Shown piece by piece: positions 2,262-63,520 of a DNA stretch of 64,000 nt. This DNA is from Escherichia coli (lineage in GTDB: Bacteria; Pseudomonadota; Gammaproteobacteria; Enterobacterales; Enterobacteriaceae): the NCBI RefSeq assembly GCF_003334405.1, contig NZ_QOWM01000002.1, one strand, 5' to 3'. The notes beneath the pieces were generated by a model. The model saw only the letters and a program-made list of their open reading frames with translations. It was not told where the DNA came from and searched no databases. The number at the start of each line of letters is the position of its first letter. Positions within the stretch are counted from its first letter, which is position 1. Made by a program: the position numbers and the translations under genes.

Positions 2262-3443
2262 ATGAAAGACGTTGTGATTGTCGGGGCGTTACGGACACCT
2301 ATCGGCTGCTTTCGTGGTGCGTTAGCGGGTCATTCCGCCGTGGAACTTGGTAGTCTGGTCGTGAAAGCGTTAATAGAACGTACCGGCGTTCCTGCATATG
2401 CGGTGGATGAAGTAATTCTTGGTCAGGTGTTGACTGCAGGGGCAGGGCAGAATCCGGCAAGGCAATCGGCTATTAAAGGTGGTCTGCCTAATAGCGTTTC
2501 TGCAATCACTATTAATGACGTTTGCGGTTCCGGGCTTAAAGCACTGCATCTGGCTACTCAGGCGATACAGTGTGGCGAGGCTGATATTGTCATCGCCGGT
2601 GGCCAGGAAAACATGAGCCGCGCACCACATGTTCTGACTGATAGCCGCACCGGTGCACAGCTTGGCAATAGCCAGTTGGTTGACAGTCTTGTGCATGATG
2701 GGTTGTGGGATGCCTTCAATGATTATCATATTGGTGTCACCGCCGAAAATCTGGCTCGCGAATATGGCATCAGCCGTCAGTTGCAGGATGCTTACGCACT
2801 TAGCTCGCAACAAAAAGCGCGAGCGGCGATTGACGCCGGACGATTTAAAGATGAGATCGTCCCGGTAATGACCCAAAGTAACGGGCAGACGTTGGTTGTT
2901 GATACCGATGAACAGCCACGCACTGACGCCAGCGCAGAAGGCTTAGCCCGTTTAAATCCTTCATTTGATAGTCTCGGTTCTGTGACAGCGGGTAATGCAT
3001 CATCCATAAACGATGGCGCAGCTGCGGTAATGATGATGAGCGAAGCCAAAGCACGAGCGTTGAATTTACCCGTGCTGGCCCGCATTCGCGCATTTGCCAG
3101 CGTTGGTGTAGATCCGGCATTGATGGGAATTGCGCCGGTGTATGCGACCCGCCGTTGCCTGGAGCGTGTAGGCTGGCAGTTGGCTGAAGTCGATCTTATC
3201 GAGGCTAATGAAGCGTTTGCTGCACAGGCGCTTTCGGTTGGCAAGATGCTTGAGTGGGATGAGCGTCGGGTCAATGTCAATGGTGGCGCGATCGCACTCG
3301 GTCACCCGATAGGCGCTTCCGGTTGCCGAATCCTGGTTTCTCTGGTTCATGAAATGGTGAAACGTAATGCCCGCAAAGGACTGGCAACGCTTTGTATCGG
3401 CGGGGGCCAGGGTGTGGCATTGACCATTGAACGTGACGAATAG
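2262..3443 (+). CDS. yqeF: Acetyl-CoA C-acetyltransferase (thiolase family)
   Basis: 393 aa from ATG 2262 (track ORF starts 1 codon earlier at GTG); thiolase motifs NDVCGSGLKA (active Cys) and C-terminal CIGGGQG. Confidence 0.9.
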   Translation: MKDVVIVGALRTPIGCFRGALAGHSAVELGSLVVKALIERTGVPAYAVDEVILGQVLTAGAGQNPARQSAIKGGLPNSVSAITINDVCGSGLKALHLATQAIQCGEADIVIAGGQENMSRAPHVLTDSRTGAQLGNSQLVDSLVHDGLWDAFNDYHIGVTAENLAREYGISRQLQDAYALSSQQKARAAIDAGRFKDEIVPVMTQSNGQTLVVDTDEQPRTDASAEGLARLNPSFDSLGSVTAGNASSINDGAAAVMMMSEAKARALNLPVLARIRAFASVGVDPALMGIAPVYATRRCLERVGWQLAEVDLIEANEAFAAQALSVGKMLEWDERRVNVNGGAIALGHPIGASGCRILVSLVHEMVKRNARKGLATLCIGGGQGVALTIERDE

Positions 3444-3600
3444 CTCTGCATTTCCTCCTTACCGATAAATATCTGCCGTCATTAATCTGTTGAATAATGA
3501 TGGCTGGCAAGTCGACATACATTTTCTGGGCTCCCTCATTTTTCCATTCTCATGACATATTCGTGATCGACACTGCACTTTTTTTAATCCTTAACTTAAA

Positions 3601-3686
3601 AATGAAACATTGTTTTATTTTTAATTGAAAACCCTAGCCCATGGGCATATCATCCCTTTATAGAGAAAACGAAACAGTGTTTCACT
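3601..3686. promoter_or_regulatory. Two KdgR-type operator palindromes upstream of kduI (AATGAAACATTGTTTTATT at 3601-3619; AAACGAAACAGTGTTTCACT at 3667-3686)
   Basis: Near-perfect inverted repeats built on GAAACA..TGTTTC half-sites, 50-130 bp upstream of the kduI start; matches the known KdgR operator type for pectin/hexuronate genes. Confidence 0.55.
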
Positions 3687-3729
3687 ATCGTTTTCTATTT
3701 TCACGCTTTACTGATTATCGGAGGTTGAT

Positions 3730-4566
3730 GTGGACGTAAGACAGAGCATCCACAGTGCGCACGCAAAAACGCTGGATACCCAAGGGCTGCGCAATGAATT
3801 TTTGGTTGAAAAGGTATTTGTCGCCGATGAGTACACCATGGTTTACAGCCACATTGACCGAATTATTGTTGGCGGCATTATGCCGATAACTAAAACGGTT
3901 TCCGTTGGCGGGGAAGTTGGTAAACAACTCGGCGTAAGCTATTTCCTTGAACGTCGCGAGTTAGGTGTTATCAATATTGGCGGTGCCGGTACGATTACTG
4001 TCGATGGCCAATGCTATGAAATCGGTCACCGCGACGCCCTGTATGTTGGTAAAGGTGCAAAAGAAGTTGTCTTTGCCAGTATTGATACCGGCACTCCGGC
4101 GAAGTTTTATTACAATTGCGCACCCGCGCATACGACGTATCCCACCAAAAAAGTCACACCGGACGAAGTATCTCCAGTCACGTTAGGCGATAACCTCACC
4201 AGTAACCGTCGCACGATTAACAAATATTTTGTCCCGGATGTACTGGAAACCTGCCAATTGAGTATGGGGCTGACGGAGCTGGCTCCGGGTAACTTGTGGA
4301 ACACCATGCCGTGTCACACCCACGAGCGCCGGATGGAAGTTTATTTCTATTTCAATATGGATGATGACGCCTGCGTTTTCCACATGATGGGGCAGCCGCA
4401 AGAAACGCGTCATATTGTGATGCATAACGAGCAGGCGGTGATCTCCCCGAGCTGGTCGATCCATTCCGGTGTCGGAACCAAAGCTTATACCTTTATCTGG
4501 GGCATGGTCGGTGAAAACCAGGTCTTTGATGATATGGACCATGTGGCCGTTAAAGATTTGCGCTAG
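3730..4566 (+). CDS. kduI: 4-deoxy-L-threo-5-hexosulose-uronate ketol-isomerase (5-keto-4-deoxyuronate isomerase)
   Basis: 278 aa, GTG start 3730 preceded by GGAGG; full-length match to KduI cupin family. Confidence 0.93.
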
Positions 4567-4595
4567 TTGTGGGCATAAACGAATAAGGTATTGTT

Positions 4596-5357
4596 ATGAT
4601 TTTAAGTGCATTTTCTCTCGAAGGTAAAGTTGCGGTCGTCACTGGTTGTGATACTGGACTGGGTCAGGGGATGGCGTTGGGGCTGGCGCAAGCGGGCTGT
4701 GACATTGTTGGCATTAACATCGTTGAACCGACTGAAACCATCGAGCAGGTCACAGCGCTGGGGCGTCGTTTTTTAAGCCTGACCGCCGATCTGCGAAAGA
4801 TTGATGGTATTCCAGCACTGCTGGATCGCGCGGTAGCGGAGTTTGGTCATATTGATATCCTGGTGAATAACGCCGGATTGATTCGCCGCGAAGATGCTCT
4901 CGAGTTCAGCGAAAAGGACTGGGACGATGTCATGAACCTGAATATCAAGAGCGTATTCTTCATGTCTCAGGCAGCGGCGAAACACTTTATCGCGCAAGGC
5001 AATGGCGGCAAGATTATCAATATCGCGTCAATGCTCTCCTTCCAGGGCGGGATCCGTGTGCCTTCTTATACCGCATCAAAAAGCGGCGTGATGGGTGTGA
5101 CGCGATTGATGGCGAACGAATGGGCTAAACACAACATTAATGTTAATGCGATAGCCCCGGGTTACATGGCGACCAACAATACTCAACAACTACGGGCAGA
5201 TGAACAACGTAGCGCGGAAATTCTCGACCGCATTCCAGCTGGTCGTTGGGGACTGCCGAGTGACCTGATGGGGCCGATAGTGTTCCTTGCCTCCAGCGCT
5301 TCAGATTATGTGAATGGTTATACCATTGCCGTGGATGGCGGTTGGCTGGCGCGTTAA
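4596..5357 (+). CDS. kduD: 2-dehydro-3-deoxy-D-gluconate 5-dehydrogenase (SDR family)
   Basis: 253 aa, Rossmann motif TGCDTGLGQG, SDR catalytic YxxxK (YTASK); 29 bp after kduI, so likely co-transcribed. Confidence 0.93.
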   Translation: MILSAFSLEGKVAVVTGCDTGLGQGMALGLAQAGCDIVGINIVEPTETIEQVTALGRRFLSLTADLRKIDGIPALLDRAVAEFGHIDILVNNAGLIRREDALEFSEKDWDDVMNLNIKSVFFMSQAAAKHFIAQGNGGKIINIASMLSFQGGIRVPSYTASKSGVMGVTRLMANEWAKHNINVNAIAPGYMATNNTQQLRADEQRSAEILDRIPAGRWGLPSDLMGPIVFLASSASDYVNGYTIAVDGGWLAR

Positions 5358-5404: not shown

Positions 5405-5671
5405 TACCTGTAGATCATCATAATCCATATCATGGTTATGAAATAATCCATATTAATTATCAATTAATGAACTTTATGAATTTTATCTGCTGTAAAATTA
5501 GGTGGTTAATAATAATCTCAATAATTCAACTTAATTTGAAAATTGGAATATCCATCACATAACGACATGTCGCAGCAATTTAATCCATATTTATGCTGTT
5601 TCCGACCTGACACCTGCGTGAGTTGTTCACGTATTTTTTCACTATGTCTTACTCTCTGCTGGCAGGAAAAA

Positions 5672-10223: not shown

Positions 10224-11255
10224 TTAGTCGCTGGTTGCATGATGACTTGCCTCCAGCGACGGAGTTGACACTGAATGACGACGTACCAGCGTCGGACTAA
10301 AGACATTAGTGATTTCCGGGAGAGGGCGATTATCCGCCAGCGCCAAAGCCAGTTCGGCAGCCTGGGTCGCCATCGTCACGATTGGGTAACGCACGGTGGT
10401 CAGGCGCGGACGCACATAGCGTGACACCAGCACATCATCAAAGCCAATTAACGAAATCTCACCCGGTACATCAATACCATTATCATTGAGAACGCCCATC
10501 GCACCCGCCGCCATTGAATCGTTATAACAGGCTACCGCAGTGAAATTTCTTCCTCGTCCCAAAAGCTCGGTCATTGCCTGTTCGCCGCCGCTTTCGTCTG
10601 GTTCGCCAAATGTCACCAGCCGGTCATTGGCCGCAATACCACTTTCAGCAAGGGCATCGTAATACCCTTGCAGACGATCTTCGGCGTCAGAAATAGAGTG
10701 GTTAGAGCACAGATAACCAATGCGGGTATGACCTTGCTGAATTAAATGACGCGTTGCCAGCCAGGCACCGTAACGATCGTCCAGAGCAATACAACGGTTT
10801 TCAAAGCCAGGCAGGATACGGTTGATCAGCACCATACCGGGCATTTGTTTCATTAATGAGGCTAAATCAGCATCCGGGATCATTTTGGCATGGACGACCA
10901 ACGCAGCACAGCGATGGCGGATCAGTTGCTCAATGGCCTGACGCTCTTTTTGTTCGTTGTGGTAACCGTTGCCAATCAATAAAAAATTACCGGTGTGATA
11001 AGCCACCTGTTCGACCGCTTTCACCATTGCACCGAAAAACGGATCGGAAACATCACCAACGACCAGACCGACCGTTTCAGTGGTCTGCTGCGCCAGCGCA
11101 CGGGCGTTGGCGTTCGGGTGATAGCTAAGAGACTCCATTGCACTATGCACAGCCAGCCGGGAAGCTTCGCTGGCTTTGGGTGAATTATTAATGACGCGGG
11201 AAACGGTGGCGACTGAAACGCCTGCCAGTCGGGCTACATCCTTTATGGTCGCCAT
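10224..11255 (-). CDS. galR: Galactose operon repressor (LacI family)
   Basis: 343 aa; N-terminal LacI HTH (ATIKDVARLAGVSVATVSRVINN). Confidence 0.94.
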   Translation of the reverse strand: MATIKDVARLAGVSVATVSRVINNSPKASEASRLAVHSAMESLSYHPNANARALAQQTTETVGLVVGDVSDPFFGAMVKAVEQVAYHTGNFLLIGNGYHNEQKERQAIEQLIRHRCAALVVHAKMIPDADLASLMKQMPGMVLINRILPGFENRCIALDDRYGAWLATRHLIQQGHTRIGYLCSNHSISDAEDRLQGYYDALAESGIAANDRLVTFGEPDESGGEQAMTELLGRGRNFTAVACYNDSMAAGAMGVLNDNGIDVPGEISLIGFDDVLVSRYVRPRLTTVRYPIVTMATQAAELALALADNRPLPEITNVFSPTLVRRHSVSTPSLEASHHATSD

Positions 11256-11468
11256 GAAAATACCTTAGTGGGTAAACGCTTACATTCTTTCAGTGTTACG
11301 GAAAACGCCCGTTGGTTCAAGGGGTGGCGTGTTTTCATCGTGGGAATGTGAGCCAAACGCAAATAAGTAAGACAAAAAAAGAGATTGCAAACCTTTGGTT
11401 ACACTTTGCGAAACGCTGTTGCGATTGACCGCTGGTGGCGTTTGGCTTCAGGTTGCTAAAGTGGTGAT

Positions 11469-11550
11469 CCCAGAGGTATTGATAGGTGAAGTCAACTTCG
11501 GGTTGAGCACATGAATTACACCAGCCTGCGCAGATGCGCAGGTTTTTTTT
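11469..11550 (+). ncRNA. omrB: OmrB small RNA (RygB), 82 nt
   Basis: CCCAGAGGTATTGATAGGTGA... ending in hairpin CCTGCGCAGATGCGCAGG + T8; matches OmrB and its position between galR and aas. Confidence 0.9.
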
Positions 11551-11664
11551 GCCGGTCATCAATCTGTAACAGTAACCGACAATTTACACACCTCGTTGCA
11601 TTTCCCTTCATTCCTTTGCGTTTTCTCGCTGGCGAAGAGTCGTCGTGCAGACCACAATCAAGAT

Positions 11665-11752
11665 CCCAGAGGTATTGATTGGTGAGATTATTCGGTACGC
11701 TCTTCGTACCCTGTCTCTTGCACCAACCTGCGCGGATGCGCAGGTTTTTTTT
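11665..11752 (+). ncRNA. omrA: OmrA small RNA (RygA), 88 nt
   Basis: CCCAGAGGTATTGATTGGTGAGATTATTCGG... ending in hairpin CCTGCGCGGATGCGCAGG + T8; shares 5' and 3' ends with OmrB. Confidence 0.9.
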
Positions 11753-11818
11753 CGCACCTAATTTACTGTCGCTCGCGTTCTTTATCTCGTGTAATCTCCC
11801 TCCATTCGCTTTTACTGA

Positions 11819-15185
<3,367 letters not shown>

Positions 15186-40170: not shown

Positions 40171-40247
<77 letters not shown>

Positions 40248-41640: not shown

Positions 41641-41738
41641 TGCCGGATGCGGCGTGAACGCCTTATCCGGCCTACAAATCATGCAAATCCAAAATATTGC
41701 AGGAGTTATGTAGGCCTGATAAGCGTAGCGCATCAGGC
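41641..41738. repeat. BIME: two inverted REP elements
   Basis: GCCGGATGCGGCGTGAACGCCTTATCCGGCCTAC (41642-41675) and GTAGGCCTGATAAGCGTAGCGCATCAGGC (41710-41738) in head-to-head arrangement. Confidence 0.8.
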
Positions 41739-44732: not shown

Positions 44733-44938
44733 AAAAAAAAGCACCGCAATTAGGCGGTGCTACATTAATCACTATGGACAGACAGGGTAAATGTACAGGA
44801 AGTGAAAAAAGGTAGCTTTGCTACCATGGTCTGAATCGCAGACCAATTGCAAACACAACAACACAACATCACAACCGTAAGCCAAAAGTTCACCAGAACA
44901 CGCATTCCGATAAAACTTTTCGTTCCGGCTCAGGAAGT
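44733..44938 (-). ncRNA. gcvB: GcvB small RNA (~206 nt)
   Basis: Minus-strand sequence ACTTCCTGAGCCGGAACGAAAAGTTTTATCGGAATGCGTGTTCTGGTGAAC... with GT-rich region and terminal hairpin GCACCGCCTAATTGCGGTGC + U8; divergent from gcvA. Confidence 0.9.
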
Positions 44939-63109: not shown

Positions 63110-63475
63110 GTCGACAGGGAGTCAGACAACGAAGTGAACATCAGGATGATGACACTTCTGCAGGACACACCAGGATGGTGTTTCAGGGAAAGGCTTCTGG
63201 ATGAAGCGAAGAGGATGACGCAGGACGCGTTAAAGGACACCTCCAGGATGGAGAATGAGAACCGGTCAGGATGATTCGGTGGGTCAGGAAGGCCAGGGAC
63301 ACTTCAGGATGAAGTATCACATCGGGGTGGTGTGAGCAGGAAGCAATAGTTCAGGATGAACGATTGGCCGCAAGGCCAGAGGAAAAGTTGTCAAGGATGA
63401 GCAGGGAGCAACAAAAGTAGCTGGAATGCTGCGAAACGAACCGGGAGCGCTGTGAATACAGTGCTCCCTTTTTTT
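63110..63475 (+). ncRNA. csrB: CsrB regulatory RNA (CsrA-sequestering sRNA)
   Basis: About 366 nt carrying well over a dozen GGA motifs, mostly in CAGGA(U/A)G context, ending in hairpin GGGAGCGCTGTGAATACAGTGCTCCC + U7; lies between syd and yqcC. Confidence 0.93.
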
Positions 63476-63520
63476 ATTCCTGCTATCCTTCGCGGCAGTT
63501 TTTCTTATTGAGGTTGCTTT

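Follow-up and report, generated by a model that had tools for sequence, protein, structure and literature searches.

The closest described counterparts of the locus considered here are the small RNAs OmrA and OmrB of Escherichia coli K-12, also called RygA and RygB (SraE), which are said to have been first characterised by Guillier and Gottesman in 2006. They serve as a standard model of how duplicated sRNAs keep a common seed and diverge in regulation and in secondary pairing regions. They link envelope sensing by EnvZ-OmpR to outer-membrane composition, iron uptake, motility and biofilm formation, reach central carbon metabolism in recent work and feed back on their own activator. For the omr genes, published work has mapped the transcripts, demonstrated that they depend on OmpR, on Hfq and on RNase E, and tested the base pairing with compensatory mutations. 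In vitro, OmpR-P activates both promoters on templates spanning -114 to +50 (PMC5175337), and OmpR ChIP signal has been reported at both omrA and omrB (PMC3945435). Both RNAs require Hfq and RNase E, and compensatory mutations have established that their conserved 5' end pairs with ompT, cirA and ompR (PMC2588501); btuB is paired by the central region of OmrA (PMC11162775). The regulation of the two genes is not identical, omrA being sigma-S dependent and omrB being activated by RstA in multicopy (PMC12692685, PMC13425233). Regulation by OmpR and the targeting of outer-membrane protein mRNAs, both of which a first-pass annotation of the present DNA had attributed to the pair, are published experimental facts (PMC2588501, PMC5175337, PMC3945435). 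The target scope given in that annotation is correct as far as it goes; the regulon is broader and also includes ompR-envZ, csgD, flhDC, flgM, dgcM, btuB, ppc, actP and fabA (PMC11162775; bioRxiv 10.64898/2026.06.26.734639), of which the last three are a recent extension (bioRxiv 10.64898/2026.06.26.734639).

The feature studied here is almost certainly the omrB-omrA locus of E. coli itself, base-identical to the type sequences and already known, with nothing new in it. An Rfam 15 scan of the whole window, by which we mean the entire stretch of 64,000 nucleotides that was analysed, places the OmrA-B family (RF00079) at positions 11469-11550 (+) with 86.1 bits and at 11665-11752 (+) with 96.6 bits; the gathering score of the model is 40 bits, and both matches span model positions 1-87 of 87 and are not truncated. 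The OmrB sRNA gene (11469..11550, +, 82 nt) is an exact string of the curated K-12 MG1655 omrB (b4445), and the OmrA sRNA gene (11665..11752, +, 88 nt) is likewise an exact string of omrA (b4444), with the fold and the terminator scan as further evidence for each. A mismatch to the published K-12 omrA and omrB was looked for, and none was found, both copies being exact. Over 7001 nt around the locus, the window equals the reverse complement of NC_000913.3 2972500-2979500 save for one base, and the window comes from a K-12-like strain that is not identical here to the MG1655 reference. That sole difference falls at window position 14233, inside lplT, where the window has G and the K-12 reverse complement has T.

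The window carries galR (-), omrB (+), omrA (+) and aas (+) in this order, as the K-12 map does when reverse-complemented. The upstream flank is galR (10224..11255, -), a 343-aa ORF that is divergent from the sRNA genes and lies in a stretch identical to galR (b2837) in NC_000913.3; the downstream flank is aas (11840..13999, +), a 719-aa ORF in a stretch identical to aas (b2836). As in K-12, omrB adjoins galR, omrA adjoins aas and both sRNA genes are on the aas strand. The names OmrB and OmrA, in that order, as proposed in the first-pass annotation, are therefore borne out by RF00079, by the identity to b4445 and b4444 and by the galR-omrB-omrA-aas arrangement.

A search of 5426 complete E. 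coli genomes recovers the 584-nt intergenic region in 5424, with an identity of at least 99% in 5304. Its matches fall at 5428 places, one of them on a plasmid; two complete E. coli genomes have no match, and coverage is below 80% in about 18 of the 5424. RefSeq PGAP has no feature under omrB-omrA (window 11256-11839) in any of 15 sampled E. coli genomes, and the curated K-12 record alone names omrA and omrB, as ncRNA genes between aas and galR. Because PGAP lists nothing at the locus in the sampled genomes, an RNA model is needed, or the locus stays unannotated; recognising omrA and omrB takes a covariance-model scan or the curated K-12 record, and the finding matters only as correct annotation. 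Elsewhere in the window, the Rfam scan also matched CsrB at 63119-63478 (+, 380 bits), GcvB at 44733-44938 (-, 199 bits), the ES036/CssrF sRNA at 41675-41717 (+, 46.5 bits, gathering score 37.6) and one tRNA at 40174-40247 (-). CsrB and GcvB appear to lie at distances from omrA that agree with the K-12 map.

The two copies are separated by 114 nt (11551-11664), which is the spacing originally noted for them. Within the 64 kb window, the 15-mer CCCAGAGGTATTGAT is confined to two sites, the 5' ends of the two copies, and allowing up to two mismatches still returns these two sites only (0.11 expected; two or more matches in none of 100 shuffles). A 32-nt block at the 3' end, CACCARCCTGCGCRGATGCGCAGGTTTTTTTT, is also found exactly twice in the window, with 0.00 expected. 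A repeat search delimits a 5' repeat of 24 nt (96% identity, spacing 196) and a 3' repeat of 35 nt (91% identity, spacing 202). The pair had been described as having identical ends and divergent middles, with a shared 5' seed and nearly identical terminators. Aligning the copies upholds the divergence of the middles (26 nt in OmrB and 32 nt in OmrA, identity 0.42), the shared seed and the likeness of the terminators; the ends are only nearly identical, with 20 of the first 21 nt and 32 of the last 35 nt in common.

The predicted folds of the two RNAs are more stable than those of shuffled sequences (z -2.9 and -2.7) and consist of a 5' part that is single-stranded or weakly paired, a central hairpin within a GGUG/CACC helix, and a terminator. 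On the plus strand, the OmrB fold comprises the 5' pairing region at 11469-11489 and the central hairpin at 11492-11506, and the fold together with the terminator scan places the terminator stem-loop at 11523-11544 and the U-tail at 11543-11550. The corresponding parts of OmrA, obtained in the same way and on the same strand, are the 5' pairing region at 11665-11685, the central hairpin GGTACGCTCTTCGTACC at 11694-11710, the terminator stem-loop at 11725-11746 and the U-tail at 11745-11752. The terminator in each copy has 9 pairs followed by U8 and takes the form CCUGCGC-N4-GCGCAGG, and the central hairpin GGTACGCTCTTCGTACC, which includes GUACGC, is the OmrA-specific pairing region. The conserved 5' end CCCAGAGGUAUUGAU lies exactly at the transcript start in both copies; it is exact in 55 of 56 aligned family members and has one mismatch in the 56th, a count that is partly circular, the loci having been chosen by the 15-mer.

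In the alignment of the 56 copies, 100% of cells pair in the tested helices. Compensatory changes occur at 3 of the 8 terminator pairs (U-A to C-G, G-C to A-U and C-G to U-A; 24 cells), and neither the number of compensatory cells nor the covariation score observed was reached in any of 500 shuffles. As a control, sliding the 3' partners lowers pairing to 18-56%. The GGUG/CACC helix is invariant in the 56 copies and is thus uninformative on covariation. A central hairpin of at least 4 bp is predicted in 56/56 copies (mean z -2.0), although the middles are unalignable across genera. The 5' 15 nt are wholly unpaired in the minimum-energy fold of only 22 of the 56, and the alternative pairings are weak.

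Duplexes between the 5' 21 nt and three target leaders of the K-12 record (ompT, ompR and cirA) were predicted with shuffled seeds as the control. The predicted ompT duplex lies at +2 to +21 (dG -19.3 and -17.8, z -3.2 and -2.6) and that in the ompR leader at -39 to -10 (dG -16.9 and -19.0, z -2.0 and -3.1), positions that agree with the compensatory-mutation data (PMC2588501). For cirA, the prediction places sRNA nt 2-10 on the ribosome-binding site, in agreement with the published position, with an energy no better than that of shuffles (z -0.9); the cirA pairing has been validated experimentally, and the complementarities were remarked to be short (PMC2588501). The published target motif CUCUGG is the complement of seed nt 2-7, and the published motif GCGUAC is the complement of GUACGC in the OmrA central hairpin.

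A generic scan for the sigma-70 consensus finds no promoter-like sites between 11200 and 11900. This null result is expected because the promoters are activator-dependent and have poor -35 elements; their assignment here rests on published start sites and conservation, with no consensus match. The search for upstream OmpR boxes that had been suggested for the locus was run with TGTWACAW, which we take to be the OmpR-box motif, and yielded 4 matches in the window against about 8 expected, none of them in the omr locus. The scan was uninformative, and footprinting and the mapping of published mutations were used in its place. No usable consensus exists for OmpR sites (PMC3945435), so that OmpR boxes are beyond confirmation by sequence alone. 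The -114 to +50 regions in the window are identical to the templates activated by OmpR-P in vitro (PMC5175337).

A phylogenetic footprint of 15 first-copy and 15 second-copy promoters reveals two conserved upstream blocks in the first-copy (omrB) promoter and four in the second-copy (omrA) promoter, and two and four conserved regions have been reported likewise (PMC13425233). The distal omrB block, TTTGGTTACACTTTGC (-75 to -60; 11394..11409, +), is nearly invariant in the 15 promoters and corresponds to the published box B2, which responds to OmpR and RstA. The published substitutions T-75C and A-68G map to window positions 11394 (T) and 11401 (A), and both wild-type bases are present; together, these substitutions lower activation by pOmpR from 81-fold to 3.3-fold and abolish activation by pRstAB (PMC13425233). 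The second omrB block, GCTGTTGCGATTG...CGCTGG (-54 to -34; 11415..11435, +), has its GCTGTTGCGATTG core at -54 to -42, includes the TTGCGNTTNNNCGCTGG sequence that omrA also has, and is conserved in first copies; its function is putative. In omrA, the distal block TGTAACAG (-100 to -93; 11565..11572, +) contains a TGTAACA that is invariant in the 15 second-copy promoters; the block, a putative regulator-binding site, is part of the fragment (-114 to +50) on which OmpR-P stimulates transcription in vitro (PMC5175337). The footprint and the paralogous alignment give three further omrA blocks at 11586..11632 (+), namely ACACACCTCGTTGCATTTC (-79 to -61), TCATTCCTTTGCGTTTTC (-57 to -40) and CGCTGG (to -33). 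By inference, OmpR may also act at conserved blocks outside box B2.

Of the 100 nt upstream of omrB, about half align with those upstream of omrA, including TTGCGNTTNNNCGCTGG, which is common to both promoters (omrB, -50 to -34; omrA, -49 to -33); counting this pattern is circular, as it was taken from these two promoters, and its support is conservation in orthologues only. The -10 region of omrB, TGCTAAAGT (11454..11462, +), has TG at -15/-14 and TAAAGT at -12 to -7 (11457-11462), with a T at -12 as read from the sequence, and the TG and the TA..T pattern are kept in orthologues. The -10 region of omrA, CCACAAT (11652..11658, +), has C at -13 and CACAAT at -12 to -7 (11653-11658), with C at -12, and its ACAAT is almost invariant in orthologues. 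The -12T of omrB is of the sigma-70 type, and the -12C of omrA determines sigma-S dependence (PMC12692685). Judged by the bases at these positions, the paralogue-specific determinants, -12C in omrA and -12T in omrB, are present as published.

Strain 300709 of E. coli (NZ_CP025903.1; locus L002, 4348-5656) carries an IS3-family element of about 1.3 kb between omrB and omrA, with a frameshifted transposase and an ALIL pseudoknot (RF01497). The insertion site corresponds to window positions 11599-11602, at -66 to -63 of omrA and inside the conserved block GTTGCATTTC, so that the omrA block at -79 to -61 is interrupted, and both sRNA genes are intact despite the element between them. The insertion probably uncouples omrA from its distal activating sequences.

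The wider family was surveyed with a 15-mer scan over 100,044 species genomes (298 Gb), which returned 120 loci. About 80 of the 120 were discarded as chance matches, found in unrelated phyla and without the Omr terminator. By Rfam, the 42 enterobacterial loci comprise 22 with two RF00079 members, up to 18 with a single member and 2 without any. As an exact 15-mer match was what identified the loci, the invariance of the seed in these orthologues is partly built in and thus partly circular. The synteny with galR and aas, traced by tblastn with the GalR and Aas of the window, is kept from Escherichia to Edwardsiella, Hafnia and Serratia. First copies are orthologous to first copies and second to second in Escherichia, Citrobacter, Enterobacter, Cedecea, Kluyvera and Kosakonia. 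Throughout the Enterobacteriaceae, the first copy is B-like and the second A-like, and the duplication is therefore old; both promoters are paralogous, and the duplicated unit is therefore the promoter plus the RNA, about 196 nt. The omrB-omrA pair is thus an old tandem duplication of a promoter and its sRNA.

The paralogue middles have an identity of 0.89 and the copies a spacing of 307 nt in Hafnia paralvei (locus L097, 1375-1770), and the values are 0.76 and 275 nt in Serratia grimesii (L043, 10379-10746); none of the Hafnia and Serratia copies is clearly A-like or B-like, and they are far more alike than the E. coli pair (0.42), which suggests gene conversion or independent re-duplication. 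Among Erwiniaceae, the Omr copies of Pantoea and Erwinia (L026, L086, L101) lie about 2 kb apart, as against about 200 nt. The Omr region of Pantoea stewartii (L026) extends over 2747-4879 and contains, between the copies, an ORF (2936-4675) for a 579-aa FtsI/PBP3-like penicillin-binding protein, which scores 687 bits with NF011685, under the cutoff of 737. A BisC/TorA-family molybdopterin oxidoreductase (130-2661) is encoded between galR and the first Omr copy in the same species.

In three species with one copy (L024, L106 and L055), upstream boxes of the omrB type precede an A-like transcript, a chimera of the kind that unequal recombination between the repeats should produce. Escherichia sp. 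ESNIH1 (L106, 1004-1208) and Pseudescherichia vulneris (L055) have the omrA-type -10 region CCACAAT; Enterobacter sp. BIGb0383 (L024, 8766-8973) has an omrB-type -10 region and an A at nt 16. The recombination junctions differ between the single-copy species. The single copy of Siccibacter colletis (L111, 4050-4445) has an omrA-type promoter (TGTAACAG box and CCACAAT). The omrB promoter has been stated to be always the one retained in single-copy species (PMC13425233), a generalisation that this omrA-type promoter does not fit. A history in which the pair has been remodelled repeatedly by recombination between its own repeats, which the literature has for the most part sketched already, is in our estimate improbable.

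The distribution of single copies also bears on whether only one of the two copies functions, the other being a decaying pseudo-sRNA. Only one copy is present in many species (up to 18 of 40 loci), Shigella boydii reportedly lacks OmrB (PMC12692685), and the common regulon is largely redundant. However, seed, terminator and central hairpin are intact in both copies, each of which has distinct conserved promoter blocks in Escherichia, Citrobacter, Enterobacter, Cedecea, Kluyvera and Kosakonia; nearly all of the 5426 E. coli genomes carry the two, both transcripts are seen on published Northern blots, and specific regulation and targets have been published for each. A dead second copy is consequently very improbable.

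Further still from plausible is the proposal that the locus encodes small proteins and that its conservation reflects coding. Four ORFs do overlap it, at 11511-11678 (+, 55 aa), 11335-11562 (-, 75 aa), 11608-11757 (-, 49 aa) and 11679-11915 (+, 78 aa), but the curated K-12 record annotates none of them. The start codon (ATG) of the 55-aa ORF falls within the variable 3' middle of OmrB and is lost in Citrobacter (CACTAGAA, CACAAAAT), and this ORF crosses a terminator and the omrA promoter. Length differences between orthologues are not multiples of three, and conservation follows the ends and stems of the RNAs instead of a reading frame.

Just as negligible is the notion that the repeats are chance, or non-functional duplicated intergenic DNA such as a REP-like or terminator-only element, with no RNA genes: the generic scan detects terminators only and no consensus promoter, and the listed genomes have no RefSeq PGAP annotation under the match, but the covariance-model matches are full-length and far over threshold, the curated K-12 record has both as ncRNA genes, the 5' 21 nt are kept across genera whose middles no longer align, the terminators show compensatory changes, and Northern blots, Hfq binding and compensatory mutations have been published (PMC2588501). 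We reject all three of these readings in view of how the locus is conserved, how the curated record annotates it and which transcripts have been published, and keep to that of two functional sRNA genes, omrB and omrA.

Taken together, omrB and omrA are paralogous, and would be independently transcribed genes for Hfq-binding, trans-acting sRNAs. Each promoter, with its poor -35 element, would be activated by the response regulator OmpR of the EnvZ-OmpR system, and a strong intrinsic terminator closes each gene, its U-tail probably doubling as a site for Hfq binding. The nearly identical and mostly single-stranded 5' 21 nt would form the pairing module, predicted to bind short complements at or near the translation-initiation regions of ompT, cirA, fepA, fecA, csgD, flhDC, flgM, dgcM and others; this pairing would block translation and trigger decay through RNase E. 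With ompR-envZ among the targets, the two sRNAs would close a negative feedback loop on their own activator. In this scheme, OmpR activation, Hfq and RNase E dependence, pairing in vivo and regulation by sigma-S and RstA are taken from the literature.

The divergent middles and promoters would give each paralogue its own behaviour. For omrA, this may comprise a sigma-S-dependent promoter with -12C and a central hairpin that would pair with btuB; for omrB, it may comprise a sigma-70-type promoter with -12T and an RstA-responsive upstream box. The present analysis itself contributes the identity, family, anatomy and synteny of the locus, the conservation of its structure with covariation, its promoter features and the predicted complementarity between seed and targets.

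Compared with OmrA and OmrB of E. coli K-12 (RF00079), the locus has the same sequences, lengths, order, 114-nt spacing, flanks, promoter features and structure; there is no difference at the locus, and the 7 kb context differs by the one base in lplT. Sibling sRNAs that depend on Hfq, have a seed in common and occur in tandem or in several copies are also known elsewhere, for example Qrr in Vibrio and PrrF1/PrrF2 in Pseudomonas. They resemble OmrA and OmrB in being adjacent or multiple paralogues that share a pairing region and a terminator, with partly redundant regulons and diverged regulation, but belong to unrelated sequence families with other regulators and targets, so that the likeness is one of general class only. 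The envelope-stress sRNA RybB, mentioned in PMC2588501, likewise uses a conserved single-stranded 5' end as its seed for many outer-membrane protein mRNAs, and its action requires Hfq and RNase E; unlike OmrA and OmrB, it is single-copy, sigma-E dependent and of a different family.
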